A DNA stretch of 63,591 nt, the filler included, from Malassezia furfur (Eukaryota): the NCBI GenBank assembly GCA_052055015.1. It is 3 parts of 3 records of this genome, joined end to end, with 100 filler letters (N's around TTAATTAATTAA, not from the genome) between each part and the next. Parts side by side here need not be neighbours in the genome. Positions count along the whole stretch, not along the records: positions 42,610 to 63,591 come from JBQJIT010000170.1; 2 more parts are not named here. One strand, written 5' to 3'. Made by a program: the position numbers and the translations under genes. Of this stretch, positions 33,348 through 60,178 are shown piece after piece (the first letter of the stretch is position 1; the number at the start of each line of letters is the position of its first letter). The notes below the pieces were generated by a model that saw only the letters and a list, made by a program, of their open reading frames with translations, ran no database searches and was not told the origin of the DNA.

Positions 33348-33731
33348 TTAGGAGAGTTATAAAAAACTATAATACTTAGAACATGGCTTGCTGATTTTAT
33401 ATGCCATGCATGGCACACGACGTTCGCACATGTGCTGATCAAGATCAGCATGCAAAACCTAATGATAGAATCGCAGAGTGTCAGCATTTAACCCCGGCCA
33501 ATTAATAGGGAGAAATATACAATTAACGTAGATCGGGATCTCCCTCGCTCAAATGCTGCGCAATTCTAAAAGCATTAGACCCTTGAATACAGCGAGGCCT
33601 GAAAACCATTTAGAGCCACTCTCTTACAAATACACTGCAATTGTCTGGGCTGCGCAGAATGAATGCTAAAATCAAGATACCATTACAATACGGATGTTAA
33701 ATCCCTAGACCCAATTATGACCAATGTACCA

Positions 33732-35681: not shown

Positions 35682-36045
35682 CCTGCTGAAGCTCGACCGT
35701 GGTCACAAAAACGCGTAATGAAGTGCAGCACTTGTATATATAGATAAACTATGTTATCTGTCCCAGCACAACAGCTATTCTACCGGGAAGGGGTTTCTGC
35801 CAACAGTCCAGGAAGAAATGACATTTACAATCAGCATGATAGGTTTCAGTAGTTAGGGTGGCCTGCACAACAAAATTTTCTCTACAGGGAGCAACTCTAT
35901 TCGTCAGAATCTTAATTTGGCGCAGAAATGTTGCTAGGCATGCACCAGAAAAAACTTAAAACTAATCTGATCCGATCGATTAAAGCGTAAGGAGCTCATG
36001 ATTATCTGGTAGAATCATTACCCTAAATCCCTGTGCAAGGATTGG

Positions 36046-41521: not shown

Positions 41522-42509
41522 ATGGCCTCGGCCCCGCTCGCTGCGTTCCTGCGCACCCGCAAGGGGCTCGCTGCACGCGGCGCAACACACTGGGTGCTCG
41601 GCAACGAGGCCGGCGACCTCGATAGCCTCGCATGTGCGATCGGCTTTGCGTTCCTGTCGCAGTACGCCGAGCCGAGCGGCCCCCAGTGGGTGCCGGTGGT
41701 GCAGACGCCGCGCGCGGACCTCGTGCTGCGCCCCGAGAACCTGGCGATGCTGCACAAGTGCCGCGTCGACCCGGAGGCACTCGTGTGTGTGGACGAGGTG
41801 CCGGCGCTCGGTGCCGACGCCGTGCTGGCCCTCGTCGACCACAACCGCGTGAGCGATGCGTTCCGCGCGGCGCAGGTCGCGGCGATCATCGACCACCATG
41901 TGGACGAGGGCGTGCACACGAGCGCTGCTGCGCGCGTCGTGGTGCCGCCGGAGCGTGCCGGCTCGTGCGCGAGTGTGCTGACGACGTACTTTGCGCCGCG
42001 GCTGCCGCCCGTGCCGCCGCTCCCCCCCGCGATGGCCGATCTGCTGTTGAGCGCCATACTGATCGACACGTACAACTTTTCGCGCGACGCGGGCAAGGCG
42101 CAGGCCGCCGACGAGGCGGCGCGCACGTTCCTCGCGCGGCAGTCGTCCTACGCCACGGCCGAGGCGCAGGCCGCGCTGTTTGACGAGCTGGTGCGCGCCA
42201 AGTCGGACGTGTCGGGCCTGAGCGTCCCCCAGAAGCTCCGGCGCGACTACAAGCTGCTCGAGTGCGACGCGCGCGGCGGCGGCGTGTGGCGCGTCGGCAC
42301 GTCGAGCACCGTCGAGCCGCTCGCGGCGCTCGTGCGCGACGGCAGCGACGCGCTCTTCGACGCGCTGCGCACCTTTGCGACGGAGCGCACGCTCGACGTC
42401 GTCGTGGTGCTGGCCGGCTTCCAGGACGACGCGGGGCGCACGCACCGCGAGCTGCTCGTGTACGCGCCGGACGCGCGCTCGCCGTTCGGCGCCGCGCTCG
42501 CGGCGCCCC
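41522..42509 (+). CDS. PPX1: Exopolyphosphatase Ppx1/PRUNE (DHH family), 3' end lost in gap
   Basis: GNEAGDLDS, LVDHN, IIDHH, GSCAS, ILIDT and LRRDYK. Confidence 0.9.
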
Positions 42510-42609
42510 NNNNNNNNNNNNNNNNNNNNNNNNNNNNNNNNNNNNNNNNNNNNTTAATTAATTAANNNNNNNNNNNNNNNNNNNNNNNNNNNNNNNNNNN
42601 NNNNNNNNN
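42510..42609. other. Scaffold gap (100 nt) with artificial TTAATTAATTAA linker
   Basis: Same structure as the gap at 21323-21422; linker at 42554-42565. Confidence 0.95.
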
Positions 42610-42611
42610 GA

Positions 42612-42839
42612 GAAGATCACAAGAATAAGACGCATTATGCTTTTGGATTGGGAAGGCGTAATTGCCCGGGGCAGTTTGTTGCGCAGAAGCAGCTGTCATT
42701 GCTAGTGGCAGCGATTGTCCACCACTATGAATTGTCGGAAGATGAACCGAGCCAACCGCTGGATCCATTGACGAATGTGACGGATCCTTGGGCGTTGGCA
42801 AGTACGCCAAGGCGAGTAAAGGTGCGTTTTGAAGAGTAA
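42612..42839 (+). CDS. Cytochrome P450, C-terminal fragment (rest lies in or before the gap)
   Basis: EDHKNKTHYAFGLGRRNCPGQFVAQKQL contains the FxxGxRxCxG heme motif; stop at 42837-42839. Confidence 0.85.
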   Translation, partial: EDHKNKTHYAFGLGRRNCPGQFVAQKQLSLLVAAIVHHYELSEDEPSQPLDPLTNVTDPWALASTPRRVKVRFEE

Positions 42840-43350
42840 TTGACCTTAAGATTCACATGGTCCCTAGGGTTTGATGATGAAATGAAATACTACGTAGAAT
42901 GATTTGTATATGGGCTTTACCACTCAACGTTTTCTTGTCAAGTCTAGTGCATTGTATGATTCATGCGTACCCCGAACCCCTCGAGCCACCAATAGGGGTC
43001 CAATGCAATGCATCTCTCCTGAGCGAGGTACTGTTCCCCCTTTCGAGTGCATGCCAAGAAGCGATTTTGTTATCCAAAGCTGCTCTCTGTGACTTCCACA
43101 AACACGGATTAACTCGGGTTCGGTCTACCTTCCAATCGCACAGGTGATGTTCCTTTTTTTACCCTGCCCGTGCGCACACGTCCCTTGTCTTAATTTTTCT
43201 GACAAATGAGAGCGCTTCCTATGAATTATTAAAAACCGGGCAAGGCGATGCCAAGACGCACCGACCTGTGCACGATCATTGCGTAGCTATCTGAAGTGGA
43301 CAGCCACACAATGCAATAAATGAGGAGACTGCAGGGAATATAGACCACCC

Positions 43351-44974
43351 ATGAGCCACACAAAGCAGGATATAAAAACAGTCTCATCCGACGAAAAATG
43401 TACATACAGTCCACATGCCGAAGGTCTCTCTTCCGAGAGCTCGCACTGGTATTCCGACCTTGAAAACCAGAGTGAAAGCGAAATCGATGGCAAGTTCTAT
43501 ATCAGTCGCGAAAAGGACAACGCAGCATACCTGGTCACCTGGACGCATGAAAACCAGTGTGAGAATCCGAGGAACTGGTCAAGGCGATATCGAATGTTTC
43601 TGGTATTCTTGGTCTCATGTTACACGGTTTTGAGCCCCATATCAAGTACTTCCAATGTACCGGCCCTTGACATACTTTCGGAACAGTTTCAAGTAAAATC
43701 CTACGTTATTGGAAACATGATGATGTCTGCACCGATGCTTGCCTTTGTCATTGCTCCCACATTTTATGCTCCACTCAGTGAACAATTTGGGCGCAAACAT
43801 ATACTTATTTGGTCCAATTTTGTGTATGTTTTTACGTACTTACCAAAGCTTTCTCCTGTTTAATGTATTCTGCGGGCTTGCTCGGGATAAAACACAGATG
43901 ATTGTTTTGCGCTTTTTTTCAGGGATGGCTGGTGTGGCCCCGGTCGCCATTGGACCTGGAATTGTTGCAGACTTGTTTGAGCCCGAAGAGCGTGGGAGTG
44001 CTATGGCTATATACACTTTGTCCCCCATCTTGGGACCGTGTATTGGACCTATTTACGCGGGATGGATTATTCAAGCCTATGGAGAGGACAAATGGCCGTG
44101 GATCTTTTATGTTTCGACCATGTTTGGCGCTCTTGTGGCTGTACTGGGACTCATCTTTCTGCGAGAGACCTACATTCCTGTCATATTGGAAAGGGAGGCA
44201 AGTAAAGTGCGGAAAGAGAGGGGCGAAGATGAATGGCATACCGTGTTCACCAATAAAGAACCACTTCGAACTCGAATCATCCAAGGGCTTTTCCGACCTT
44301 TTATTTTCCTTGCAACACAGCCAGTTGTCCTTGTGACCTGCATATATCAAGGGCTAATGTTTGGATGCCAGTATCTTCTCCTGGCTTCTTTTTCACGACT
44401 CTTCAAGGACAACTATGGTCAGCCTCCTGGGTTGGCTGGTCTACACTATTTCTCAATGGTTATTGGTTTCCTAATCAGCGGCATTATTGGTGGCAAATGG
44501 GTCGACTGGAAGTACCGGCGCTTGAAGGAGCGCAATGGAGGTATTGGGAAACCTGAATTCAAACTTCCCTTTTTGGTTGTCACAGGGATCGCAATGCCTG
44601 TGGGTTTGCTCCTGTATGGATGGACCGCAGAGTATCATCTGCACTGGATGGCCCCAGACGCTGGAATTTTCATTCTCTCTTGGGGTCTATGTGCTACTAT
44701 GTTTATTTGCCCGTTATATCTTGCTGATGCAGTGACAATATATGCTGCTTCTGCATCCAGCGCTGGGATTATCACAAGAGGGCTATTCGCCTTTACGTTT
44801 CCTCTTTTTGCTCCGAACATGTATGAGGAGTTGGGCCAAGGCTGGGGAAACTCGCTCCTGGCCTTGGCTACACTACTTATTGGGATTCCAGCGCCCATTC
44901 TTCTATACCGGTTTGGTGAGACCTTAAGAAACCATTCGTCCTATTCTAAACATGCCATGTCTTTGATTTCGTAG
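43351..44974 (+). CDS. MFS DHA1 drug:H+ antiporter, copy 1
   Basis: ENPRNWS, PLSEQFGRK, LRFFSG, GPCIGPI, ETY, KPEFKL and LGQGWGNSLL. 25-nt intron at 43824-43848. Confidence 0.9.
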
Positions 44975-45165
44975 ATCCCCACATGTATATACACGTCGTG
45001 ACTTATGGACAATTTACATCAACCAATCAAGCAAGTCCATTGAACCTGATCGTTGTGCCTGGCAGCAAGTCTACTTACCCGGTTCGTCCCGAAATTGACG
45101 CATTGCCTCATTGATCTTACATTTGTCAGGGGCGGCGTAAGCTTCCTCCACTTGAACCCAATGTC

Positions 45166-46759
45166 ATGAAAGTCGACAGCCTTCGCGAAGATGTGTCGAC
45201 AGAAGAGCATGCCCACAAAAGCAGCTTTCCGATAGTCGATGAAGAGAAAGATGTCCCGAATCTCGTTCCCAATGCTAATGAAGTGCAAGAGGATGAGGGG
45301 AAAGAGCACAAACCGTATCTTGTAACATGGGATGAAAACGACGCGCATGAATGTCCTCGCAACTGGTCTCGAAGATACCGAATGTTTATGGTATTTGTTG
45401 TGTCTCTGTATACACTCCTGATGCCTATATGCAGTACGATGAATGCGCCTGCTTTAGACACACTGAAAGAAGAGTTTCATGTGAGGTCTGCGCCTTTGAC
45501 GAACATGATGATGTCAACTACAGTGCTGGCATTTACGGTGGCCCCCATGATCTACTGGCCTATGAGTGAGCGAGTTGGACGCAAGTATATCCTCCAAGTT
45601 TCGAATATCATGTATGTGCGATTGCTCACGCAGATTTCTCCTGTTCAATGTTGGGAGTGGACTCTCTCAAAATGTGCAGCAGATGATCATCTTACGCTTC
45701 TTTGTTGGGTATGCGGGGTGTGCACCTGTTGCCATTGGTGCAGGGATCATTGCAGACCTGTTTGTCCCTGAAGACCGAGGCCATGCGATGGCAATGTATA
45801 CCCTTGCGCCGGTTCTTGGGCCATGTATTGGGCCTATCTTTTCAGGATGGATTATTCAAGGCTACGGAGAGAATAAGTGGCGCTGGATCTTCTGGACATC
45901 AACCATGTTTGGTGTGGCTGTGACCGTACTAGGCTTACTTGTTCTTCGCGAGACCTATGAGCCAATTTTGCTCGAACGGAAAGCCCGACGCCTTCGAAAA
46001 CAGACGGGGATCAAGGAGTGGCACACAAAGTATACTGTCAAAGAGACATTTATGACAAAGCTAGTTCATGGAATGATGCGTCCGTGCATCTTCTTTGCTA
46101 CTCAGCCCGTCGTGACGGTCTCATGCATCTATCAGTCCCTGCTTTTCGGCTGCCAGTATCTGCTCCTCGCATCATTCTCACGGGTGTTTAAAGAGCAGTA
46201 CGGACAGCCGGTCGGCATTGCATCGCTGCACTACATTGCTATGGCAATTGGATATGTCCTCAGTGGACAGATTGGCGGGCGTTTTGTGGATTGGAACTAC
46301 CGGCGTTTGAAAGCCAAAAATGGAGGCGTCGGAGTTCCCGAATTCAAATTACCGACCCTGATCGTCACCGGCGTGCTTATGCCAATCGGATTGCTTTTGT
46401 ACGGCTGGACGCTAGAGTACCGTGTACATTGGATTGTACCCGACATTGGGATTTTCATCATCGCGTGTGGTGTACGTATGGCGATGTTTGTGTGTCCACT
46501 GTATCTGGCAGACGCCATCACGCTGTATACGGCCTCGGCGACGAGCGCCCTCGTTATGACACGGGGCATGTTCTCCTTCACTTTTCCCCTATTTGCTCCG
46601 GATATGTACGAAACATTGGGTCAAGGTTGGGGCAACAGTGTCCTTGCGTTGTGCACGGCCCTCATTGGTCTTCCTGCCCCCTTCATCCTGTACCGGTACG
46701 GTGCGGCTCTCCGTGCACGATCTGCCTACTCGAAACGCGCCATGGAGCTGATGTCCTAA
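45166..46759 (+). CDS. MFS DHA1 drug:H+ antiporter, tandem copy 2
   Basis: Paralog of 43351-44974 with the same intron position (22 nt, 45612-45633). Confidence 0.9.
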
Positions 46760-46869
46760 CGCGCAAATACAAGGCCATGGTTGGGAAAAGCACCCTCATT
46801 GTATGCTTGTGGCCGCGTTATCTTCATGATGATACCATAACTGATTCTGTACAATACAACGTATATCTA

Positions 46870-48500
46870 TCATTGCGCTTCTGTTTTGGATGCCTCGTTT
46901 GCAATTTTGCGCTCTCGCACCGCATTCCAATGCGGCCCCCTTCGAATGACAAATTCCAATAGTGGCGCAGAAAGCACCAGGCTGCCTAGACCAAAGACGG
47001 TAAAGGTCCAGCCATTTCCAATGTCGTCAATGACATACTGAACAGCTGCAACAAAACCTGCTCCAACGAGACATCTCCCGATGTTTAGCGCCGCAGTTAC
47101 AGAGGCTGCCCGCCCTGGCGACAAGTCAACGAGGATAGTTTGGCTGCGTCAGCTGGGAATACACACATCGCGTTGAAGTAAAGAATACTCGCAAAGCTCA
47201 GCACAAACTGCAACACCATGGGTGCTGCAATATGCACTGGCTTGGACAAGACTTTGTAGTCAATGCACCACCCATTCGCAAGGGTGGTCACTGTGAACAA
47301 GACATTGAAGAGTAAAGCATGTCGGAGCCGAGCATGGTGAAGATTCATGTTATCGCCGTGCTTACGGCTCGCTTTCGCATACTCATAATCGAGCAGTTTT
47401 CCGGATACAACGCTCCCAATCGCGCTGCCTGCACCCAAAGGAATAAAGCAAAGGCCCGAGATAATAGAGTCGTATTCGTAGGCGGTTCTCAAGGTCGGCG
47501 ACAACGACGAAGACACCATCGTATACACTCCAAATGGGATCGAGAAACTGGTGATCATCAATGCCAAGTCTGCATGGCCAAACATGCGCCAAGGCTTATC
47601 GAACCCCATTGTACGGAGGTTCAAAGGTGGTGGCTTGTGCATCCATTCCCCCTTCTCTGTATCGCGCTTGTCCTGTTCAACAGTGTCGTCCGTCATTGAA
47701 ATGGGAATTACCGTACGCCATATGCCATACGGTTTCAAACTCCCATCTCCCACAAGGAAACGGAGAGATTCGGGAAGAATAAGGACCATTAGCAGCAAGT
47801 ATACCCCACCAAAGGCAGAGAGAAAGAAGAAAACGGCGTGCCAATTCCATGTTTGGGAGACGAGGCCACCCACGATAGGTCCCACAGCAGGGCCAAGCAA
47901 TGTGCCTGTTTGGAAAAAGCCCATATACGTTCCGCGCTCTTTACGGCGAGATACATCACTAATGCATCCTGCTCCAATAGAAATGGCGCTGCTTGCACCA
48001 CATGCCTGTAGCATCCTCAACACGAGAAGAAGCCAGTAAACGCGGGTAAAGGACAAGCCGAGATTAGCAATTAAGAAAACAACAAAGGTAAGAATTAGGA
48101 TGGGCCGTCGTCCGTACGTGTCAGAGAGGGGGGCCCATATCGATGGGGATATCCCTTGAAAAATCATATAGGTCGTCACGGAAAGCAACGTTTGACTGCT
48201 GTCAATGTCGAGGTCATGAGAAATGTCAGGCACGGCCGGCATATAAATATTCACGGAGAAAGGGCTCATGAACGCAGACGTAGAAGCCAGGACAACGATG
48301 AACACCTTTGCTCCTCTTTTGAACGCAGAATAATACTCTTCTTCGTCGTCGATATTGTCTTTTGTGTCATGCGGCGGAACTGGAACCTCAAGTGGCCCCA
48401 GTGATTCGAGATGCACGGAGCTCGCTTCGGAATGGTCCATACTCTTTGAATCACATTTGGACGGGGTGCTTAAACTGCTTCGTAGCCATTTCATAAGCAT
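46870..48500 (-). CDS. MFS DHA1 transporter (Qdr-like), left copy
   Basis: YSAF, NIYMPA, SDTYGRRP, LRMLQA, ERGTYMG..GPAVGPIVGG and LPESLR. 23-nt intron at 47144-47166. Start could be 48500, 48494 or 48440. Confidence 0.88.
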
Positions 48501-48691
48501 GTGAGGAATGTTTGGCAAAGAATGACTTCCCAATGCTCATATGGCCCGCTTTCGGATGTTACTGCTGGTCTGGACGATTCAATTTTTTTTCCACGGCGAC
48601 TGCCCTGACCACCACGTGGATAGTTACGCACGGACCTACTTTGTACCATGAAATTGGAAAGGTGGATTTAGCTATCGCTAGAGTATGCACA

Positions 48692-49801
48692 TTAAGCCGC
48701 ACCTTCGACGCCGACAGAAGCAGCCAGGTTGCATTGCCGGAAAATTCGCACCTCGTTGTCGGCAAATGCACCAACAACAGAATGAAGGACACCACGGTTG
48801 TGGAAGAGGACAAGGTCACCCTCTTCCCAATCATGAGGGTAGACGTATTCCGGTGCGATGGCTGGTCGCTGGAGTTTGTATACAGTATCCCGGACCTTTT
48901 GGAGATCGTCAATCACTGTACCATCGGCCAGGTGGATCTTGCGGATGGCAGAGGGGTGAATCTGCAGCGCAAGCTTCCCGGTGGAAGGGTTCTTCCACAC
49001 CATAGGCAAGATCTGGATCTTGTCCTGCTCAATGGGCGGAAGCTCGTCCTCCGTAAGCTCCTTTCCCTCCGTATAAAGACCCAATCCTGTCGGGAGAGCG
49101 CTACATTTGCTCATCCAGATGTAAGGGTGAGGTGCATATTCGATCTTGCTGCTCTTCACAAACTCCTTGTCCTCGTCGGAAAGAAGCTCGTACATCGTTT
49201 CACCACTGACAAAAGCAGTCGTGCCAAGAGGTACGTCTAGTTTGTCCTCGGTGCCATCATCATAAAGCAAAGTCTGCCGCCGCCCTGCAGGCACTGAGAC
49301 GGCCATAAGAGTTGTGACTTTTGGCGGGCTCCTTCCGTACAGGGCAGCATCAATGTGCCAACGGTAGAATCGGGTGAAGTCCAAGTCCTTCTCTTCCGGG
49401 ATGCGATCACGATGAAAGGTTTTATGATGAGGGTGTCTGAGCTGAATATCCTTCAGACCTTCAAAGTCCTTCACGAACCCGTTCCCAATAACTTGCACCT
49501 GGGGTTGATGCGGAATGGTCTTCAGATCAGGATGCAAGATACTCTTGGCCGAGTTGGGCACGTCTGTTCCATGACCATATGTGTCAGTCTCGGGGTCAAA
49601 GAGCCTTGTCAATTCATACTGGGCCTTGGGCGTAACATGACCTTGGTTCTTAAACAAGATAACATGATGCTTGTATAGTGCATCGTGGATCGTCTTGAAG
49701 TCTTCATCAGAGATATTCTGAAGATCGACACCGTCAATCTGAGCACCAAAGTTGACTTTGCTCCCGGCAGCGGGTGTGAAAGGCTTGACTTGAGCAGGCA
49801 T
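48692..49801 (-). CDS. xanA: Alpha-ketoglutarate/Fe(II)-dependent xanthine dioxygenase (TauD/XanA family)
   Basis: KSILHPDLKTIPHQPQVQVIGNG, TRFYRWHIDAALY (HxD), PPKVTTL, LGTTAFVSG and WEEGDLVLFHNRGVLHSVVGAF match fungal XanA as recalled; purine-cluster context supports it. Confidence 0.88.
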   Translation of the reverse strand: MPAQVKPFTPAAGSKVNFGAQIDGVDLQNISDEDFKTIHDALYKHHVILFKNQGHVTPKAQYELTRLFDPETDTYGHGTDVPNSAKSILHPDLKTIPHQPQVQVIGNGFVKDFEGLKDIQLRHPHHKTFHRDRIPEEKDLDFTRFYRWHIDAALYGRSPPKVTTLMAVSVPAGRRQTLLYDDGTEDKLDVPLGTTAFVSGETMYELLSDEDKEFVKSSKIEYAPHPYIWMSKCSALPTGLGLYTEGKELTEDELPPIEQDKIQILPMVWKNPSTGKLALQIHPSAIRKIHLADGTVIDDLQKVRDTVYKLQRPAIAPEYVYPHDWEEGDLVLFHNRGVLHSVVGAFADNEVRIFRQCNLAASVGVEGAA

Positions 49802-49852
49802 GGTTAACGGAGAGAGATGTATCCCCACACCGATCTAGCTTAAGAGCGGTCC

Positions 49853-49935
49853 CTTATCTGCGGACTCCGCCAAACCACTATTTCTCCCACTTATCAGCGT
49901 ATGAATCAACACTTGCATAATATTTACTGCTTATC
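49853..49935 (-). promoter_or_regulatory. Three GATAAG sites upstream of xanA
   Basis: cttatc at 49853, 49890 and 49930. Confidence 0.55.
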
Positions 49936-50046
49936 AATCGTTTCTGAACGATTCGTGCACATATGTACGACCTTATGACAAAATTCCACCTTAGCACACA
50001 AGTACTCTGTAACTGGTGCTTACAAGGACCTCTCGGTGGAGAGCGC

Positions 50047-51765
50047 CTAGGGTTTGAAATCCTCATTTGTCACAACCGGCTTTTCGGTCGTGTCTGTAGG
50101 ACTTTCCTTGCCACTCTGGTGAACATTGTCATCAAGCATATCCTCGTAGGTTTCGCCTTGCGTGCCATAGTTGTAAGCACCGGCAAACTCGTGCGTAAAG
50201 TCGGACTCGTCGATCTCCTTGAAGTGACGGTTCATGCCCTGAGGAGGAACAGCCAGACAGCAGAGGATATAAACCAAAGCAGAAGAGAAAGTGCCTGTAA
50301 TCCATGCAAGGTCGAAAACATGAATCCAGCCATCCGAAACATGAACGCTGTCATTCACAGTTGCAATAAAACCGGGAGCATTGATGCCAAAGCCAACGAA
50401 ATAGGCAAGGTAGGCCCTCCAGTTGATACCCCATGTGTACCAGTACCAGCCGTGCTTGTCCAGGGTATACAGGTCGGCCACATTGTAGTGCCCACGACGA
50501 ATTAGATAATAGTCAGCGAACATAGGACCGGCGATACAAGAAAGAAGAACGCTGAAAGCGCTCAGGTAGTTGAGGAATTGGTTCGAAGATGTGTAGAGCC
50601 TCCAAGGGTTCATGACAATGGCCACAAGTGCCGAAACGTAACCACCGCGACGAATGTTGATAAACCTGGGGCAAAGTGCGGTCAAATCGCAGCCCGCAGA
50701 AACGGAATTCGCCGCAACGTTCGTAAGAAGCTGCACATAGACGAAACCAGCCGAAATAAACCACAGCCCAACACGAGTTCCGGTGGTCGGGTTCTGGTCG
50801 CCATCGAGCATACGGTTCATGATGGTGACAATATCCCAAAGATCCTCGTTGAACATGACTTGCGCAGCCTTTCCAATAGCGATACCAATGAACGAGGTGA
50901 CAACGAAGACGGCAGGAACAGTAATGAGCTGAGGCCACAGTGCAGCACTGCGCGATTTAGCAGGCGAAGCAAAGTCAGGCGCATTGACGATCAGGGGGAA
51001 CATGTTGTTGAATGCGACAGCAATGCCTCGAATGACTTGCCATGTCAGAGCGGACCCTTCCAAGTTAGCCGAACCGTTAAAGTTATTGAAAACATTAGAC
51101 CGGCCGGCCCGCGAGATGGTCCAACCGAACAAGGAAAAACCGACGATCGGTCCGATAAGCGCTTTAGCGGTGAAAAGGTGGCGAAGCTTGTGAAGCGGCA
51201 CCCAGATCGTTGGAAGCATGAGCAGCCAATAAATCACATAACACAGAATAAAAGACGATTGCGTCTGGGACTCGGGCGACATGATGTTGGGGATGTCCTG
51301 ATCGATGGTGTGCCACATTGTTCGAAGCCATACATGAACACATTCGCCGCCAAGCCATGACTGCACACCGGCCCAGATGCAGGCCATACCGGCGCGATTG
51401 ATGATGGGCCAATAGGACCCAAAAATACCGAATGATGTCCGACAAACTGCCGGGAACTTGATGTGGTATACCGCACCGGGACGCGCATTGAAAACCACGT
51501 ATACACCAACAAGCGAATAACCGATGGCCAGAGCCACAATTGCTTGCCATACGTTCAGGCCTTGGACGACCAAAGCCGAAGACATTGTGAAAGTGTTCAG
51601 GTTGAAGCCATCCGCAATCCAGAAGTTCATGAAGTTGATCCAGTCCCAAGTACGTTTTTCGGGAGGAACAGGCATGAGATCTTCATTGGCGACTTGAAGT
51701 TCGGCGCCAGACATGCCTTCCGGCCGCCGTGTCTCGATTTTCTCGACCAATTTCTTGAACTTCAT
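50047..51765 (-). CDS. NCS1 nucleobase:cation symporter (Fur4/Dal4-like uracil/allantoin/urate permease)
   Basis: NEDLMPVPPEKRTW..FWIAD, GAVYHIKFPAVCRTSFG, NAPDF, NVAANSVSAGCDLTALCPRFINIRRG, PW and GINWRA. Confidence 0.92.
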   Translation of the reverse strand: MKFKKLVEKIETRRPEGMSGAELQVANEDLMPVPPEKRTWDWINFMNFWIADGFNLNTFTMSSALVVQGLNVWQAIVALAIGYSLVGVYVVFNARPGAVYHIKFPAVCRTSFGIFGSYWPIINRAGMACIWAGVQSWLGGECVHVWLRTMWHTIDQDIPNIMSPESQTQSSFILCYVIYWLLMLPTIWVPLHKLRHLFTAKALIGPIVGFSLFGWTISRAGRSNVFNNFNGSANLEGSALTWQVIRGIAVAFNNMFPLIVNAPDFASPAKSRSAALWPQLITVPAVFVVTSFIGIAIGKAAQVMFNEDLWDIVTIMNRMLDGDQNPTTGTRVGLWFISAGFVYVQLLTNVAANSVSAGCDLTALCPRFINIRRGGYVSALVAIVMNPWRLYTSSNQFLNYLSAFSVLLSCIAGPMFADYYLIRRGHYNVADLYTLDKHGWYWYTWGINWRAYLAYFVGFGINAPGFIATVNDSVHVSDGWIHVFDLAWITGTFSSALVYILCCLAVPPQGMNRHFKEIDESDFTHEFAGAYNYGTQGETYEDMLDDNVHQSGKESPTDTTEKPVVTNEDFKP

Positions 51766-51794
51766 GATGTGCGCGAAGGAATGAATGATGAAGC

Positions 51795-51935
51795 GATAAG
51801 CGCATTTTAAGTATGAGTCTAGAGCTCTCGTACCTTGGCATTACTAGACCCTCTTTTCAAAAAAAGATAAATGCTATCTCTAATCAGGGCTGAGTCAGAT
51901 AATGCTTATCAAGTTGGATGGCCACGCATCTTATC
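51795..51935. promoter_or_regulatory. Divergent NCS1/hpyO promoter with a GATA cluster and a TGAGTCA site
   Basis: GATAA or TTATC at 51795, 51866, 51898, 51905 and 51930; TGAGTCA at 51891-51897. Confidence 0.6.
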
Positions 51936-52006
51936 AGGGCACATATGCATGTGCTACGAGATGACACATATAGGACATGTCGGAACCATTTCTACTCTGA
52001 AAGACC

Positions 52007-53587
52007 ATGTCTCAAATCACACTACCTTGGAACGATGCCGCTAAAGTTGCGGGGATGCCTATACCTGAGTGTGACAACCTTCTCCCAGATGCCAAGGAGA
52101 GGCTGACTGCACTTGTGGATCGAATCAAACAAGATATTACCACGACCAACCACCATGCTGACTGGATCCCCCGTGTCAATGACGATGCATCATCTCCTGT
52201 GCAGGATGTTGTCATCATTGGTGCAGGTCAAGCTGGTATGGGTGTTGCTTTCGCACTCAAGCGGGAGCGCATCGATCGTGTGCTCGTTTTGGACGCAGGC
52301 GACGACCCATCCCGCGTAGGACCTTGGAATAGGTATGCGCGGATGCACACGCTTCGCAGCCCCAAGCGCATGAAAGGGATCGAGCTTGATGTGCCTAGTC
52401 TCCACATTCAGCGTTGGTTTGAGGCATGCTACGGAGAGAGGGCTTGGGCCGAAACGGACCTAGTTCCTCGTCTCGATTGGAACGACTACCTCGTGTTTTA
52501 CCGATGGGTGACGGGGATCGACGTTCGCCATCATTCCAAAGTTACTGCTGTCCATCGTCCTGAGACCGAGGATGGACCCTTTGCCGTCGAGGTGGTCGAA
52601 GCTGGCAATCCCGAATCTGTGACGAAGGTTATTCATGCGCGTCGCATTGTCTTTTCTTTGGGATTGATTGGTGGCGGTGGCATCAATGTTCCGGACATGA
52701 TTAGCAGTCTGCCTCGCTCGCGCTGGTATCACACCGAAGAAGAGTTCGACATGAGTTCCATGGATGGCAAGCGTGTGGCTGTCTTGGGTGGAGGTGCTTC
52801 TGGTTTCGATAATGCCGGCACAATCTTGGAGGCTGGAGCTTCCAAGGCCATTGTGTTTATGCGCCGGAATGAGGTGCCCAACAGCAACCCACTGCGCTGG
52901 ATGGAATTCCCTGGTATGCAAGAGCATTTCTTCGACCTTACCGATGAACAAAAGCTAGAATTCACACTGTACAACGGTGGCCTTCCTCAACCTCCAACGC
53001 AACATACCATCTGGCGCTGCTTTGCTCAGCCCAACTTTGAGCTTCGTATGGCAGAGAAGTTTACAAGCATCGAGGATACCGGCAAAGAACTCGTCATCCA
53101 CTCGGTGAACGAGAAGGGTGAGACGTTTGTGTACCATGTTGACCTGGTCATTGCTGCGACAGGCTACAAAGTTAATCTTGCATTGCGCCCAGAAATGAGC
53201 GAGTTTGTCTCCGAGATCCAGACATGGTCTGAGGCGTACCCCCCGTCGACGGAGACGTGGGTCGGCCCGAGCCCTTACTTGGGCACCGGTTTCGAATTTA
53301 CCCCTCGCGACTCCTCTGCTCCCTGGATCCGCCGGCTGCACCACTTTTCGACTGGAGCACGGGCATCCATGGGCGTTACAGGCAACCAATTGTCTGGTAT
53401 TTATGGCGGTCTGAAACGCATGGCCTGGTCCATCGCTACGTCAATTACGAGGGAGAGCTGGCCAACGCTTATGAGTGACTTCCGCCGCTTCGAGCACATT
53501 GAAGTTACAAACGTTGGCAAGCATGAACCAGGAAACAGACCCTATGCCAGTGGACCTCGCTTTTTGGGTGAGCGCACGGTAGTATAA
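52007..53587 (+). CDS. hpyO: FAD/NAD(P)H-dependent monooxygenase, HpyO-type urate hydroxylase-like (bacterial family)
   Basis: Two Rossmann motifs (DVVIIGAGQAG; VAVLGGGASGFD). GPW..ARM.TLRSPK...WFEA.YG..AW....PRL.W.DYL..YR, ATGY and PYLG.GFEF match bacterial HpyO as recalled. Lies next to an HIU hydrolase. Confidence 0.78.
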   Translation: MSQITLPWNDAAKVAGMPIPECDNLLPDAKERLTALVDRIKQDITTTNHHADWIPRVNDDASSPVQDVVIIGAGQAGMGVAFALKRERIDRVLVLDAGDDPSRVGPWNRYARMHTLRSPKRMKGIELDVPSLHIQRWFEACYGERAWAETDLVPRLDWNDYLVFYRWVTGIDVRHHSKVTAVHRPETEDGPFAVEVVEAGNPESVTKVIHARRIVFSLGLIGGGGINVPDMISSLPRSRWYHTEEEFDMSSMDGKRVAVLGGGASGFDNAGTILEAGASKAIVFMRRNEVPNSNPLRWMEFPGMQEHFFDLTDEQKLEFTLYNGGLPQPPTQHTIWRCFAQPNFELRMAEKFTSIEDTGKELVIHSVNEKGETFVYHVDLVIAATGYKVNLALRPEMSEFVSEIQTWSEAYPPSTETWVGPSPYLGTGFEFTPRDSSAPWIRRLHHFSTGARASMGVTGNQLSGIYGGLKRMAWSIATSITRESWPTLMSDFRRFEHIEVTNVGKHEPGNRPYASGPRFLGERTVV

Positions 53588-53604
53588 CCATTCTTTTCTT
53601 TCAT

Positions 53605-53931
53605 TTACGATCCGCGATAGGTACTAAATCCAAAAGGTGACAAAATCAAAGGAACATGATAGTGTGAACTCGCGTCAGCAACGTTGAAAAAAATTTCAAC
53701 TTTTGGATAGAAGTACGCCTTGATATTTTGTGCTTCAAAGTAGGACGCAGTGTCGAAAACCATCCGATAGGTTCCAGTCTCAAGTTGGACACCTGAGAGA
53801 TCACTGGTCCTGCCGTCCGAATTCGTTGTGCCAGACCCAATCAGGGCATCATCCGATTTAAATAGCTTGAATGGCACACCCTCAGCAGGCTTCCCGAGAC
53901 TTGTGTCCAGAACGTGGGTGGAAATGGTCAT
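53605..53931 (-). CDS. uraH: 5-hydroxyisourate hydrolase (transthyretin-like)
   Basis: MTISTHVLDTSLGKPA, TNSDGR and HYHVPLILSPFGFSTYRGS with the diagnostic C-terminal YRGS. Confidence 0.95.
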   Translation of the reverse strand: MTISTHVLDTSLGKPAEGVPFKLFKSDDALIGSGTTNSDGRTSDLSGVQLETGTYRMVFDTASYFEAQNIKAYFYPKVEIFFNVADASSHYHVPLILSPFGFSTYRGS

Positions 53932-54575
53932 CGTTGATGTGGGTGTCGAAGAAGGTAAGCTTTCCCAACGATGATAAGGGTGTATCACGTGTCTCGCACG
54001 GACCAGTTGGGAAAGGATCAGCCTGAGCGTGTTACTGTATCTTCAGCGGAACACAAGTGGCCGAACTTGTTTGTAATAAGCCCTGCCAAGGTGGATAAAG
54101 CGATAATCTCTTTGTATTTTGCATTATACACCTGGATGTTACCCCGGCTACAGGGACCGACTTTTGACAGATTGGGAAACAGCCTTAGATTAGAGGCTCG
54201 ATTAGGGCATTCATCTTCCTATGGAAATTTCTGAACTCAAATTTGATGTCAGGGTAACCAAGTACACCGTTTTGGCTACGTTTTAAAAAAGCGACTTGGA
54301 TAGGGTATCCTATCCCATCTCCACGAATGGGTGAATTCGGAAACACTTCTTTTGCGAAAATATGAACGCGAACTATCGTCTTAACCCTGCACCATATCCG
54401 GCTTAGTTCTTTGCAGTCCCTGCTGGCACCCCTCCCACAATGCATGTTCGAAATATATGTGAAAGCGTTGTATTGGGTCCAGCAGGATCGCCGGTCCGAC
54501 TTGGCAGGTGGGGTACAGTCATAATGTGGAGAATGTCAGGTGCATACCAATCATTAGGGTTCTTTATCTAACACC

Positions 54576-55736
54576 ATGACGTTCCAGCCGATCTCAGAAG
54601 AAGAATTGGGCCGCACGCTCGCCATCACCTCGGTAGAAGTGTCGTCCTCTGCGCTGGGTGGTAAAGTGCTTGGATGCTCGGACGAATGGTTCGCAGCGGC
54701 CACGAACCTGATCAAGCCTGGACCTGCCCAGTCCCTCAAGGGGCAGTTTGGTCCGAACGGCGCTCTCTATGACGGTTGGGAGTCGCGCCGGCACAATCCT
54801 ACGTATGATTGGGCCATTATCCGTCTTGGTCCTTCTGGTGGTGGTCGTATTACTGGCTTTGACGTTGATACTACCACCTTTAATGGCAACGAAGGCCCGG
54901 CGGCGGCGGTGTACGGCGCCTACCTCCCGGAGGGCGAGCAAGACCCCGGCGCGGACGACAGCGTGTGGGAGCTCGTCCTTCCCGAGATTCCCTGTGGCCC
55001 TCTTGCCCACCACATCTACTCGTACTCGGACCCCGAAGGGACGCCCAAAGCCTACACGCACGTCAAACTCCATATGATCCCCGACGGTGGAATTTCGCGG
55101 TTCCGTGTGTACGGTGTAGTGCAAGTCCCGCCGGTGGGTAGTGGTGTGAGTGAGCAGGTCATTCCGGACCACTCCGAGCTGAATACGCTGGATCTTGCGC
55201 ATGTGCTCAACGGCGGCCGCGTCGTGTTTACCAACGACCAGCACTTTGGCATTGGTCCTAACCTTCTTTTGCCAGGGCGTGGCAAGGATATGGGCGACGG
55301 GTGGGAAACGAAGCGTTCGCGCCAGCCCAACCACTTTGACTGGGTAGTGGTCCGTCTTGGTGAGCCGGGCGTGTTGAGCTACATCGAGGTGGACACGATC
55401 CATTTCCTTGGCAATTTCCCCGAGAGCTTTGTTCTCGACGGCTGCAACTTCCAAGGTCCGGGTGACATTCCGCCTGAGCACCATGATCTGAAATCCGCGC
55501 AATGGACTCCCCTGGTGTCGCGTACGAAGCTAGGCCCAGGCAAGCAGCACTATTTCGAGATCGAGAAGTCGAGTCGCGACAAGGTCTTTACGCATGTTCG
55601 TTTGACCATCTTCCCCGATGGCGGCATCAAGCGCTTGCGCATCATTGGCCGTCGTGCCAAGGCATTGGAGGCAGCGGGGATCACAAGCGATGCGCAGCGT
55701 GCGGACCTGCCCACTGTGCCCCTTCCTAGCGCATAA
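54576..55736 (+). CDS. DAL2: Allantoicase
   Basis: Two allantoicase repeats: SDEWFAAA.NL..DGWESRRH..PDGGISRFRVYG and DQHFG..NLLLPGRGKDMGDGWETKRSR..PDGGIKRLRIIG. Confidence 0.94.
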   Translation: MTFQPISEEELGRTLAITSVEVSSSALGGKVLGCSDEWFAAATNLIKPGPAQSLKGQFGPNGALYDGWESRRHNPTYDWAIIRLGPSGGGRITGFDVDTTTFNGNEGPAAAVYGAYLPEGEQDPGADDSVWELVLPEIPCGPLAHHIYSYSDPEGTPKAYTHVKLHMIPDGGISRFRVYGVVQVPPVGSGVSEQVIPDHSELNTLDLAHVLNGGRVVFTNDQHFGIGPNLLLPGRGKDMGDGWETKRSRQPNHFDWVVVRLGEPGVLSYIEVDTIHFLGNFPESFVLDGCNFQGPGDIPPEHHDLKSAQWTPLVSRTKLGPGKQHYFEIEKSSRDKVFTHVRLTIFPDGGIKRLRIIGRRAKALEAAGITSDAQRADLPTVPLPSA

Positions 55737-55859
55737 AAAAAAAAAAAAAAAAATGGCGCCGTGCGGCATGCCAGTGCGCTTATTTTCGTAGCAATGATAC
55801 GAAAATGAAAAAATGATTGTAACAAAGTACGTCGGCAAGCGCTATTGTGTGACAAAGTT

Positions 55860-56843
55860 TTACTTCTCCACGGGATGCACTTTGCGCCAGTGCTCGGCGA
55901 TTTCGCCGCGCGTAGTGACCCAGATACCGCCACCGGTCTTTTTCATCTCGGCGTCCTTTTCCTTGATGTAGTCAAAGAATTTGCGGAGCGCTCCAATGCG
56001 GCCCGGACGGCCCACAACACGGCAGTGCAGACCGACCGTCATCATGCGGGGAGCCTCGTCACCCTCGCGGATGAGCGTGTCTAGGGCGTCCCGCATGTAC
56101 TGGTAGAACGAGTCCGCGTTGAAGAAGCCCGGCGTAATGCCAAACTTCATGTCGTTCACATCCAGCGTGTACGGGACGACAAGCAGGTGCTCGTTCGGCG
56201 TACCGTCCGGAGCAGGCACGTAGTACGGCACATCCTCGTCGTAGGCGTCGCAGTCGTACAGCTTGTGGTGCAGTCCACGGCGCTTGTACTCCTCGTACAC
56301 AAGGCGGCGCGTGTTGGCCGACTGGCGTCCCGTGTACCAGCCGAGAGGGTAGCTGTTCGACGGGCTTGCGTCGTGGATGATGTCGATCGACTTGGCAATG
56401 TGCTCGCGCTCTTCTTCCTCAGGCACCTCGACGTGGTTGATCCAGCGGTAGGAGTGGCTTCCCACCTCGCCCTTAGCCGCCTCCATAGCACCGACCACCT
56501 GCGGGTTGAGCTCGACCGCGCGTGCGACCGCCCAGGACGTAAAGGGGAAGTCGTACTCCTGGAAGAGTTCCAGCAGGCGCCAGATACCGCGGCGTGCGCC
56601 GTATGCATACGAGCTTTCCACGGAGAGGTTGCGCAGGCCGGGCTTGGAGGGCGCGTTGGGCGCGCCGTACTCGCTCAGGTAGTTCTCGGCCGCGGGGTCG
56701 CCGTTCACCAGCGTGTTCTCGCCGCCCTCTTCGTAGTTAATCACGAACGACACACAGACGCGCGCATTGTTCGGCCACTGCGCCTGAGGGATCTTGGGGC
56801 CGTAGCCCTGCATGTCGCGTTCAGCATGGGGATCGTAAGGCAT
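55860..56843 (-). CDS. puuE: PuuE-type metal-independent allantoinase (polysaccharide deacetylase fold), copy 1
   Basis: RDMQGYG..WP..ARVCVSFVINYEEGGE, ES.YAYG.R.G.WR, HSYRW, GWYTGR, PYTLDVNDMKF and GLHCRVVGRPGR. Confidence 0.85.
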   Translation of the reverse strand: MPYDPHAERDMQGYGPKIPQAQWPNNARVCVSFVINYEEGGENTLVNGDPAAENYLSEYGAPNAPSKPGLRNLSVESSYAYGARRGIWRLLELFQEYDFPFTSWAVARAVELNPQVVGAMEAAKGEVGSHSYRWINHVEVPEEEEREHIAKSIDIIHDASPSNSYPLGWYTGRQSANTRRLVYEEYKRRGLHHKLYDCDAYDEDVPYYVPAPDGTPNEHLLVVPYTLDVNDMKFGITPGFFNADSFYQYMRDALDTLIREGDEAPRMMTVGLHCRVVGRPGRIGALRKFFDYIKEKDAEMKKTGGGIWVTTRGEIAEHWRKVHPVEK

Positions 56844-57287: not shown

Positions 57288-58280
57288 TTATTCCACCGGA
57301 TGCACCTTGCGCCAGTGCTCCGCAATCTCGCCGCGCGTCGCGACCCAGATGCCGCCGCCACCGGCCTTTTTCATTTCGGCATCTTTCTCCTGAATGTAGG
57401 CAAAGAACTTGCGCAGGGCGCCGACGCGGCCAGGACGACCGACGACGCGGCAGTGCAGGCCGACCGTCATCATCCGAGGCGCCTCTTCACTCTCGAGAAT
57501 GAGTGTGTCCAGGGCGTCCACGAGATACTGGTAGAACGACTCGCCGTTGAAGAAGCCGGGCGTAATGGCGAACCGCATGTCGTTGGCATCGAGCGTGTAC
57601 GGAATCACCAGCAAATGTTCATTCGGCGTGCCGTCCGGTGCAGGCACATAGTATGGCACATCGTCGTTGTACGCGTCCGAGTCGTACAGTTGCTTGTGCA
57701 TGCCACGCCGCTTGTACTCTTCGTACACCAAGCGGCGCGTGTTGAGCGACTGGCGGCCAGTGTACCAGCCCATAGGGTAGCTGCCTGACGGGCTGGCATC
57801 GTGGATCACATCGATGGCCTTGGCGATGTGTTCGCGCTCGACATCCTCAGGAACTTCGACGTAGTTGATCCAGCGGTACGAGTGGCTGCAGACTTCGCCG
57901 CCGGCCTCCTCCATGGCGGCAACTGCGCCCGGGTTGAGCTCGACTGCACGGCCGACGGCCCAGGAGGTAAAAGGGAAGCGGTACTTGCGGAAGAGGTCGA
58001 GCAAGCGCCAGAGCCCACGGCGCGACCCGTACTCGTATGCGCTCTCGACGGATAAATTGCGAAGGCCCGGCGGCGCGGGGCCTGTGGGTGCGCCGTACTC
58101 GGTCAGATAAGCTTCGGCGCCTGCATCGCCGTTCAGGAGCGTATTTTCACCGCCCTCTTCGTAGTTGATCACAAACGAGATGCATACCTGCGCCTTCCCC
58201 GGCCATTGCGGCTGGGGCACGTTGGCACCGTAGCCGATGAGGTCGCGTTCCGCGTGCGGGTCGTACGCAGACGAGGTCAT
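57288..58280 (-). CDS. puuE: PuuE-type allantoinase, tandem copy 2
   Basis: Colinear close paralog of 55860-56843 with the same motifs. Confidence 0.85.
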   Translation of the reverse strand: MTSSAYDPHAERDLIGYGANVPQPQWPGKAQVCISFVINYEEGGENTLLNGDAGAEAYLTEYGAPTGPAPPGLRNLSVESAYEYGSRRGLWRLLDLFRKYRFPFTSWAVGRAVELNPGAVAAMEEAGGEVCSHSYRWINYVEVPEDVEREHIAKAIDVIHDASPSGSYPMGWYTGRQSLNTRRLVYEEYKRRGMHKQLYDSDAYNDDVPYYVPAPDGTPNEHLLVIPYTLDANDMRFAITPGFFNGESFYQYLVDALDTLILESEEAPRMMTVGLHCRVVGRPGRVGALRKFFAYIQEKDAEMKKAGGGGIWVATRGEIAEHWRKVHPVE

Positions 58281-58468: not shown

Positions 58469-60066
58469 TTACTGAAGTCCCAATTTTGCTAGTCGTTCTT
58501 CTCGTGCCCTGCTCCACTGCGGGCCATAGTGCATGACGATCCACACCAGCGGCGTCGAGATTGCAAAGCTCGACAACGAGAATATGACAAAGGTCCAGCC
58601 GCTGCCGATCGCGTCGACCGCGTATTGGACCGCCGCGACAAAGCCGGCGCCCACGAGGCACCGTCCGATGTTGAGTGCAGCAGTCACGGACGCCGCGCGC
58701 CCGGGCGAGAGATCGACGAGGATGGTTTGGCTGTGTGAGTGGGTGTAGCGTACATCGAGTTGAAAAACATGATGCAAGTCAGCGTCATGAGGAAGAGCAG
58801 CACCATGGGCACGGCGATGTGCACGGGCTGGTCAAACTCTTTGACGTCCATGCACCATTCGCTCGCGAGGACGAATGCGGTAAAGATGAAGTTGAACAAG
58901 AAGGCGTGCTTCAAGCGCGTGTGGTACAAATTGAGGTTTTTCCCGTGTTTCTGGAACGCGCGGCGGTACTCAAAGTCGAGTAGTTTGCCCGCGAGGATGC
59001 TGCCCAGCGCGCTGCCGATGCCCAGCGGCATGTAGCAAAGGCCGACCTCGATGCTGTTGTAATGGTATACGTTGGTGAGCGCGGGCGACAAGGACGAGGT
59101 CACCATGGTGTAGACGCCAAAGGGGATCGCAAAGCTCAGGATCATGAGTGCGAGGTCGGGCTGGAGGAAGGCGCGCCATGGGCGGTCGAAGCCCATGGAC
59201 TGCAGGTTGAGTTTGGGCGGTGGGTTCATCCTGTGCGTGTGCTGTTTTTCCGCGTCGGTGCCCTCGAGGGAATCGTCGACCATGTGCAATGGGATGAGGG
59301 TGCGCCAGATGCCATAGGGTCTCAAGCTGCCGTCGCCCACGAGCGCGCGGAGCGACTCGGGCAGCATAAGCACCATAAATACGAGGTAGCCGCCTCCCAG
59401 GGCCGATAAGAAGAAGAAGACGGCGTGCCAGTCCCAGCGGTGCGCGACGAGTCCACCGACGATGGGCCCAATCGCCGGTCCGAGGAGGGTGCCCATCTGG
59501 AAGAAGCCCATGTATGTCCCCCGCTCCTTGCGGCGCGACACGTCGCTGATGCACCCTGCGCCGATCGAGATGGCGCTGCTGGCGCCCGATGCCTGGAGCA
59601 TGCGCAGGACGAGGAGGAGCCAGTACGCCTGCGTGAACGAAAGGCCGAGGTTGGCGATGAGAAACACGACAAACGCCATGATGAGGATCGGGCGGCGGCC
59701 GTACGAATCCGAAAGCGGCGCCCAGAACGAGGGCGTGAGGCCCTGGAAGATCATGTACGTCGTGATGGACAGGAGGGTCTGGCTGTCGGTGATGTGCAGG
59801 TCCTTGGTGATCTCCGGCACGGCGGGCATGTAAATGTTGATGGCAAACGGACTCATCACGCCGGAAACCGACGCGAAGACCACGACAAAAATCCGCGCGT
59901 TTTTGGTGAACGCCGAGTAGTGTTCCTCGTCGTCGACGTGAGGACGCGGCTGGTCCTCTGGGGGCACGGGCACCTCGATGGCACCCACCGACTCGAGCTG
60001 GGGCGAGGGTGGTGCCGCCGCATCTGGCGGCTCTGGCTCTTGTGCGTTGCTTGCACTTGATCGCAT
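58469..60066 (-). CDS. MFS DHA1 transporter (Qdr-like), right copy
   Basis: Paralog of 46870-48500 with a 23-nt intron at the same position (58731-58753). Shares LSPGRAASVTAALNIGRCLVGAGFVAAVQY. Confidence 0.88.
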
Positions 60067-60178
60067 AATCCCATGCAACGACGTGCTGACCTCCGCGGAT
60101 GAGTCAATTTCTTTAGATAGCGCTACTTTTTTCTTCGCGAGGATTTAAGCCACGTGGCGCGCACGGACCGCTGCCACC

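Follow-up and report, generated by a model that had tools for sequence, protein, structure and literature searches.

The flavoprotein gene at positions 52007–53587 (plus strand) of a 63,591-nucleotide stretch of the Malassezia furfur genome (assembly GCA_052055015.1, three parts of three records joined end to end; hereafter the window) is of actinobacterial descent and was transferred into Malassezia, where it is located in a cluster of purine-catabolism genes. Based on its open reading frame, Pfam domains, homologues, phylogenetic trees, bacterial gene context, and an AlphaFold2 model, the encoded protein was classified as an HpyO-like two-dinucleotide-binding flavoprotein monooxygenase. Its sequence and gene context suggest that it is probably a urate hydroxylase using NAD(P)H and flavin adenine dinucleotide (FAD), filling the step from urate to 5-hydroxyisourate (HIU).

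The gene forms an uninterrupted single reading frame that begins with ATG and encodes 526 amino acids, as an earlier reading of the DNA alone (the sequence-only reading) had described, and the protein aligns end to end with bacterial homologues. Homologues were found at E = 0 to 1e-80 and the gene is therefore judged to be real. A GPW/ARM signature reported by the same reading is present as GPWNRYARMHTLRSPK at residues 105–120, although three residues and not two separate GPW from ARM. Within this segment G105, W107, A111, M113, L116, R117, P119, and K120 are invariant in the family alignment (n = 16 sequences), and the glycines of the two dinucleotide-binding motifs, GAGQAG (residues 72–77) and GGGASG (residues 261–266), are likewise invariant in the alignments. 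A database protein at 100% identity (P0001) is 546 amino acids long and differs in its first 21 residues and by one K-to-R change; the differing N-terminus points to a small insertion or deletion at or just upstream of the start codon in another strain or assembly.

Phylogenetic Analysis of the Flavoprotein

A protein search identified 313 proteins at E ≤ 0.001 among 8000 candidates. The eight best matches are Malassezia-like (67–100% identity; those named are M. psittaci with 79%, M. equina with 72%, and M. nana with 69%), followed by a ninth match, P0009, with 58% identity. The named proteins among matches 10–77 all belong to Dietzia, Corynebacterium, Rothia, or Rhodococcus (42–60% identity), and relatives from many phyla are found beyond match 77 (35–41% identity). 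No fungus outside Malassezia is named among the best 120 of the 313 matches. A contig scan based on a generic Rossmann pattern returned at least six full-length relatives, all with ≤38% identity, and a sample of 401 genomes from the order of G001 returned four matches, all with ≤37% identity.

Phylogenetic trees were constructed with FastTree (143 rows) and IQ-TREE (65 rows, LG+C20+F+G4 with posterior mean site frequencies, PMSF) and agree on the placement of Malassezia. In the IQ-TREE analysis, the eight Malassezia rows form one clade (support 100/100) with P0009 as the sister (91/93), both fall within a clade that also holds Dietzia and the C. variabile group (97/96), and this clade is in turn part of a Corynebacterium/Rothia clade (100/100) that neighbours Rhodococcus (100/100). 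An approximately unbiased (AU) test rejected the best tree that holds 39 actinobacterial-type rows together without Malassezia (delta log-likelihood 63.1, p-AU 8.3e-5); the group of 39 rows was chosen after inspection of the tree. The sequence-only reading had proposed acquisition from bacteria with a proteobacterial enzyme as the source, and had named nesting within bacterial HpyO with few fungal matches as the support to look for. The bacterial origin and the scarcity of fungal matches (Malassezia only, among the listed matches that are named) were borne out, but the donor is actinobacterial, of the Dietzia/Corynebacterium type, and the Malassezia proteins nest in the Actinobacteria, separate from the HpyO-annotated clade.

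Fungal descent was checked by homology for one neighbouring gene, encoding a PuuE-type allantoinase. The control search returned, in this order, Malassezia proteins with 66–99% identity, Ustilaginomycotina with 48–61%, Schizosaccharomyces and Saitoella with 50–51%, and bacterial PuuE with 47–52%, and this gene is of ordinary vertical fungal descent. The PuuE orthologues of many Ustilaginomycotina carry a fused GFA domain (PF04828), which makes them proteins of approximately 520–550 amino acids (P0254–P0267); the Malassezia copies are unfused. A joint transfer of the neighbouring allantoicase gene with the flavoprotein gene was considered and is unlikely, as the allantoicase is 34% identical to its bacterial neighbour counterpart compared with 51% for the flavoprotein.

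The Purine-Catabolism Cluster

The flavoprotein gene is surrounded by genes for HIU hydrolase, allantoicase, and PuuE, the urate-pathway setting that had been recognized from the DNA alone, and a cluster of six genes recurs on an independent metagenome contig of another Malassezia species (L025). The HIU hydrolase gene (53605–53988, minus strand; PF00576, E = 5.7e-35; TIGR02962, 124.7 bits, cutoff 87.45) is located tail-to-tail with the flavoprotein gene across a gap of 17 nucleotides (53588–53604), as noted earlier. Its true start is likely the ATG at 53931, resulting in a protein of 108 amino acids. This form was found identical, letter by letter, in the ESM Atlas, where the look-up returned bacterial clusters only; a look-up of this kind cannot decide the origin of a gene. 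Farther downstream follow an allantoicase gene (54576–55736, plus strand; Pfam Allantoicase, E = 4.3e-96; TIGR02961, 335.8 bits, cutoff 277.9), the gene for the PuuE-type allantoinase with its polysaccharide-deacetylase fold (55860–56843, minus strand; TIGR03212, E = 5.8e-111, 370 bits, below the cutoff of 424.6), and a tandem PuuE paralogue (57288–58280, minus strand; Pfam Polysacc_deac_1) that is identical to the first copy in 260 of 325 residues.

Upstream, an NCS1-family nucleobase/allantoin permease gene (50047–51765, minus strand; Transp_cyt_pur, E = 6.6e-112; TIGR00800, 385 bits, cutoff 353) is divergent from the flavoprotein gene with 241 bp between the two, consistent with the earlier claim of a shared promoter. 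It is followed by a gene for a TauD/TfdA-family 2-oxoglutarate dioxygenase (48692–49828, minus strand; Pfam TauD, E = 7.9e-40), which we take to be a candidate XanA-type xanthine hydroxylase converting xanthine to urate.

The L025 contig carries the same six genes in the order of the window, except that the permease gene is inverted. The L025 flavoprotein (P0004) is 70% identical to the window protein, and the TauD-family dioxygenase, permease, and HIU hydrolase are 75%, 67%, and 73% identical, respectively. On this contig the genes for the flavoprotein and HIU hydrolase overlap at their 3′ ends. Within its 17.6 kb L025 contains a single PuuE match, compared with the tandem pair in the window. 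According to the available text of Doniselli 2015 (PMC4562309), a HIU hydrolase is meaningful only where something oxidises urate.

Gene Context of the Bacterial Homologues

The four closest bacterial loci with flanking sequence were scanned with Pfam (150 of 158 frames; eight short frames of L026 were left out). In L027, genes for an NCS1 permease, PhoX, a DUF6986 protein, an allantoinase-type amidohydrolase, and allantoicase are followed by the flavoprotein homologue. DUF6986, amidohydrolase, allantoicase, and homologue occur in the same order in L028, which also carries a guanine-deaminase-like amidohydrolase, a xanthine/uracil permease, a HIU hydrolase, and a decarboxylase of OHCU (2-oxo-4-hydroxy-4-carboxy-5-ureidoimidazoline). 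In both L030 and L031 the homologue is tail-to-tail with an OHCU-decarboxylase/HIU-hydrolase fusion gene; L030 carries EmbC, which presumably marks Corynebacteriales. No uricase domain was found in the scanned frames of L026, L027, L028, and L030. The DUF6986 protein (E = 1e-120) is encoded directly upstream of the allantoinase, allantoicase, and homologue genes (L027:3869–5248 and L028:3567–5102) and may belong to ureide catabolism.

Core urate genes were counted by tblastn at all loci whose flanks add up to 4 kb or more. They are present at the single Malassezia-like locus (1/1), at four out of five Corynebacterium-type loci (45–65% identity), and at 2 out of 49 distant loci (<45% identity). 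A Novosphingobium operon (L005) consisting of PuuE, OHCU decarboxylase, the homologue, and HIU hydrolase accounts for one of these two distant loci. Proteins related to that of L005 carry the name “FAD-dependent urate hydroxylase (HpyO)” in some sources, and some of them are fused to OHCU decarboxylase; P0105 and P0218 are family members with such a fusion. These counts indicate that the urate link is particular to two subclades within a larger family, and that one of the two comprises the direct bacterial relatives of the Malassezia genes.

Distribution of Uricase and the Published Record

The window has 272 stop-to-stop frames with a length of 100 amino acids or more, and the 150 longest (≥144 amino acids) were scanned with Pfam. 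As the sequence-only reading had stated, no uricase (PF01014) was found among the scanned frames; the window does carry a HIU hydrolase gene. The accessible part of the Pfam table of Wu et al. 2015 (PMC4634964) gives a uricase count of 0 in 25 of 26 Malassezia assemblies and of 2 in MSL7956, and lists uricase as present in 15 of 16 other fungi. The column codes of the table were decoded by interpretation and MSL7956 was read as M. slooffiae. Allantoicase is given as 0 in seven assemblies in the same table (four of M. globosa, two of M. restricta, and M. obtusa). The table counts predicted proteins and misses small genes: a HIU hydrolase is recorded for 6 of the 26 assemblies although the window and L025 each carry one. 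The proposed replacement of uricase thus agrees with the window and with all but one of the assemblies in the published table, whereas one assembly, read as M. slooffiae, has uricase.

The transfer itself has been described before. S6 Text of Wu et al. 2015 (PMC4634964), in the part accessible here, lists a transfer named “PNDR” with Dietzia as the origin and Pfam family PF13738, reports M. slooffiae to be without PNDR, and places a loss of PNDR in the M. globosa/M. restricta lineage. Judged by family, donor, and annotation, the window gene is very probably the published PNDR gene MS42132_3641/MSYG_3153, with MSYG_3153 being the probable M. sympodialis orthologue. If PNDR is this gene, the two distributions are complementary: the species with uricase is without PNDR, and the lineage that lost PNDR is also without allantoicase. 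The available text of Ianiri 2020 reports the transfer and an upregulation of MSYG_3153 under nitrite together with the allantoicase gene DAL2 and with DCG1, and DCG1 is listed under allantoin racemisation in the accessible part of a 2026 review of urate enzymes. The FungiDB entry, as displayed, names MSYG_3153 an L-ornithine N5-monooxygenase.

The main text of Wu et al. 2015 (PMC4634964) contains no occurrence of uric, purine, or allantoin and does not draw the link to urate. The words purine and uric do not occur in the available text of Ianiri 2020, and neither HpyO nor Malassezia is mentioned in the accessible part of the 2026 review. A literature search on HpyO and Malassezia urate metabolism found no paper that gives a urate function to a flavoprotein of Malassezia or another fungus. 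The transfer was thus first published in 2015, and the functional reading appears to be new.

Evaluation of the Proposed Function

The flavoprotein matches eight Pfam families at E ≤ 0.001, among them Pyr_redox_3 (E = 2.8e-15) and, in part, Lys_Orn_oxgnase (PF13434, E = 4.5e-13), and it matches NAD_binding_9 with 31.2 bits (cutoff 21.8). FAD_binding_3, the domain of HpxO, is not among the eight families, and Pfam returned no match to uricase PF01014 in the 526 residues. The AlphaFold2 model (mean predicted local distance difference test, pLDDT, 86.5; predicted template modelling score, pTM, 0.88) has the predicted fold of a class B flavoprotein monooxygenase. The best-conserved motif of the family, YARMHTLR (residues 108–116, approximately positions 52328–52354), is the part of the model with the lowest confidence (pLDDT < 50), and this segment may be a mobile active-site loop.

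The best structural matches of the model in the Protein Data Bank (PDB) are the N-hydroxylases PvdA, KtzI, and SidA (template modelling scores 0.59–0.76, 13–17% identity). These similarities account for the automatic name “L-ornithine N5-monooxygenase” under which Malassezia proteins are publicly annotated. Together with the partial PF13434 match and this name, they also fit a flavin monooxygenase for another substrate. The enzyme could then be a siderophore-type N-hydroxylase acting on ornithine, lysine, or a diamine, or else an oxygenase for stress or xenobiotics, and the purine neighbourhood would be incidental. The nitrite-stress induction of the probable orthologue, the four ferric reductase genes 16–37 kb away (in window coordinates), and the lack of urate genes at most distant family loci are in line with such a role. 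However, an identity of just 13–17% to the N-hydroxylases is low, the best E-value in a sequence search of the PDB is only 1e-4, and the 150 frames around the closest bacterial homologues contain no siderophore domains (nonribosomal peptide synthetase, IucA/IucC, or other) but purine and urate genes instead. The tight tail-to-tail pairing with HIU hydrolase genes is kept in two Malassezia contigs as well as in L030 and L031. Another substrate is accordingly rated as unlikely.

The gene context indicates a pathway and not an exact step, and the substrate of the flavoprotein might be xanthine, hypoxanthine, or a different oxopurine, with urate being left to an oxidising enzyme that was not recognized; urate oxidases unrelated to uricase, such as PuuD, exist (Doniselli 2015, PMC4562309, available text). 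Against this, the cluster already contains the XanA-like dioxygenase for xanthine, the conversion of urate to HIU is the sole step for which no other candidate is present, and both the fusions with OHCU decarboxylase and the position beside HIU hydrolase connect the family with the reactions around HIU. A role at a different purine step seems quite improbable.

Urate hydroxylation thus remains the favoured function, and a number of further observations weigh against it in the same way as the structural matches and public names. Among the NCBIfam models none came near its cutoff. The identification with HpyO made by the sequence-only reading holds as far as likeness and the NAD_binding_9 match are concerned, but the protein is only 33–35% identical to HpyO-annotated proteins (35% and E = 6e-87 to an HpyO-named protein), belongs to a separate subclade, and is accordingly rated as HpyO-like and not as an established HpyO. 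Clades that are almost devoid of urate genes (the distant loci, 2/49) stand between the window subclade and the HpyO-annotated clade. The HpyO references in the trees are sphingomonad proteins that carry this name and do not include the characterised Xanthomonas HpyO; the latter is also not among the 120 matches listed for the Novosphingobium protein as the query. The function of the Corynebacterium/Malassezia subclade is predicted from sequence and gene context. L026 of the Dietzia type is the closest bacterial locus with flanks, and these flanks (2.4 kb and 1.9 kb) contain no urate gene. A scan for OHCU decarboxylase (PF09349) gave no match among the 150 longest frames of the window, and L025 is likewise devoid of it. 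The search for uricase in this M. furfur genome covered the window frames, and MS42132_3641/MSYG_3153 were matched to the window gene by Pfam family, donor genus, and annotation, not by sequence.

Proposed Pathway

The favoured scenario begins with a gene of the actinobacterial Dietzia/Corynebacterium group that was acquired by an ancestor of Malassezia and settled in the native purine-catabolism cluster. Urate would be produced by the XanA-like dioxygenase and then converted to HIU by the FAD-containing, NAD(P)H-dependent flavoprotein monooxygenase, presumably in the cytosol; the C-terminus of the protein (GERTVV) was read as not being an SKL-type tail. The adjacent HIU hydrolase would convert HIU to OHCU, from which allantoin would form spontaneously or with the help of a decarboxylase whose gene lies elsewhere, and nitrogen would be released via PuuE and allantoicase. 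The flavoprotein would in this way replace the cofactor-free peroxisomal uricase that is missing from most Malassezia, in a reaction that would yield water at the cost of NAD(P)H.

Taken jointly, the sequence data make it moderately likely that this is the first eukaryotic flavin urate hydroxylase, a bacterial, water-forming, cytosolic enzyme that displaced the peroxisomal uricase in most species of a fungal genus whose habitat, the skin, bears uric acid, and that was wired into a native nitrogen-regulated purine cluster, with the early-branching M. slooffiae keeping the ancestral uricase. The displacement of uricase may be linked to the reshaped peroxide handling of the genus, the catalase of which is also of bacterial origin according to the accessible text of Wu et al. 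2015 (PMC4634964).

The proposal provides a testable function for a gene of a medically relevant skin yeast that two publications list among the transfers from bacteria without assigning it a role, and it would explain why Malassezia keeps HIU hydrolase, allantoinase, and allantoicase without uricase. If true, it extends flavin urate hydroxylases to the eukaryotes, offers a clean example of a foreign gene that closes a single gap in a native pathway and cluster, and flags an uncharacterised actinobacterial subfamily as likely urate hydroxylases.

Genomic Surroundings and Integrity of the Locus

The window is a piece of a Malassezia chromosome, and M. psittaci is the closest species by the named protein matches. 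The fungal-type neighbourhood described by the sequence-only reading was confirmed, with RRP12, Gpi16, Rot1, LETM1, DHHC, and DEAD helicase genes on the left and peptidase M3 and glutathione S-transferase genes on the right; Pfam identified further eukaryotic housekeeping genes (RMND1, NSRP1, and an NLE/WD40 protein). The flavoprotein gene is very unlikely to be an assembly artefact. In M. psittaci a single contig of 1,018,865 bp carries both the flavoprotein gene (MPSI1_002281) and, two locus tags further on, the PuuE gene (MPSI1_002283), and the M. nana and M. equina copies are located on contigs of 717 kb and 721 kb, which together with the L025 cluster argues against a chimera. Between the window and L025 copies of the flavoprotein gene dN is 0.25 and pS is 0.79, the latter being saturated. 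The intronless state, which the sequence-only reading had noted, is confirmed as a single frame but carries little weight because every neighbouring gene is likewise one open frame.

The G+C content at third codon positions (GC3) is 0.57 in the flavoprotein gene and differs from that of the housekeeping genes of the window (0.74–0.88), as might be expected if the gene came from a contaminant or chimeric contig. The same value is found in the native XanA-like gene (0.57) and a similar one in the permease gene (0.59), and the value of the flavoprotein gene is far from the 65–72% GC of donor-type loci. Two blocks of the window (30000–36000 and 42000–56000) have a lower GC content of 0.47–0.54 compared with 0.60–0.71 elsewhere. 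Native genes inside these blocks (ferric reductases, major facilitator superfamily (MFS) transporters, the XanA-like dioxygenase, and the permease) have a GC3 of 0.52–0.63, so the low GC of the flavoprotein gene is regional and no sign of a foreign origin. The composition fits an old transfer. Eukaryote-specific genes are present on both sides, the neighbourhood is repeated in L025 and, judged by locus tags, in M. psittaci, and the supported nesting inside the Actinobacteria together with the AU test stands against an ancient vertical fungal gene that was lost elsewhere. Contamination, a chimera, or vertical descent is therefore considered highly improbable as the source of the gene.

Several other genes of the window were recorded. 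A NUP purine nucleoside permease gene (PF06516; 21370–22932, minus strand) is a further purine-related gene, 29 kb from the cluster in window coordinates, and is divided over two frames, with profile positions 1–206 in one and 208–300 in the next; either an intron or a frameshift could account for the split. The purine cluster is flanked by four MFS transporter genes (43324–48536 and 58687–60144), two of which apparently each extend across two frames, and carriers of allantoate or urate may be among them. Genes of the ferric-reductase type (Ferric_reduct, FAD_binding_8, and NAD_binding_6) number four and are located at 14704–18621, 29173–31185, 31414–33300, and 33735–35702, and three of the four form a tandem array on the minus strand.

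GATA Sites in the Divergent Promoter

The 241-bp divergent promoter region between the permease and flavoprotein genes (51766–52006) contains six HGATAR sites by motif count, corresponding to 24.9 sites per kb compared with a window-wide density of 1.23 per kb. No other stretch of 241 bp in the window reaches six sites, and none of 5000 mononucleotide shuffles reached this number. In L025 the 129 bp upstream of the orthologue contain one HGATAR site and the 151-bp spacer between the XanA-like and permease genes contains three. Conservation of the enrichment was considered and rejected, given the single site upstream of the L025 orthologue. Of the fungal GATA control suggested by the sequence-only reading, the strong enrichment of upstream sites in the window stands but the enrichment is absent upstream of the L025 orthologue; control of the purine cluster by a GATA factor is plausible.

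Comparison with Known Systems

Published actinobacterial transfers into Malassezia include the flavohemoglobin YHB1, catalase, and PNDR, and YHB1 shares its donor phylum with the window gene. The accessible texts of the two papers on PNDR (Wu 2015; Ianiri 2020) give no function for it and are silent on urate, on purines, and on the gene cluster. SidA, PvdA, and KtzI have the nearest solved fold to the window protein, which also matches PF13434 in part, but the likeness is at the level of the fold only, with 13–17% identity, and siderophore genes are absent from the scanned frames of the bacterial homologues.

Uricase (Uox/UaZ), the usual fungal enzyme, acts at the same pathway step and feeds HIU hydrolase but is unrelated in sequence to the window protein; it makes H2O2 and is peroxisomal in eukaryotes (Doniselli 2015, PMC4562309, available text). 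HpxO of Klebsiella, a class A flavoprotein urate hydroxylase, resembles the window protein in the proposed reaction and cofactors (Doniselli 2015, PMC4562309, in the part accessible) but belongs to the unrelated FAD_binding_3 family, the domain of which is unmatched in the window protein.

A close parallel is HpyO from Xanthomonas, a urate hydroxylase that depends on FAD (Michiel et al. 2012, cited in the accessible text of Doniselli 2015, PMC4562309, where HpyO proteins were gathered via Pfam NAD_binding_9). Compared with HpyO-named proteins and not with the characterised enzyme, the window protein is approximately 50 residues longer at the N-terminus and has a eukaryotic host, and it belongs to an actinobacterial/Malassezia subclade that is 33–35% identical to the sphingomonad HpyO-annotated clade. 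It shares with HpyO the two-Rossmann architecture with NAD_binding_9, homology over the full length to the HpyO-named proteins, and neighbouring genes of the urah and urad type.

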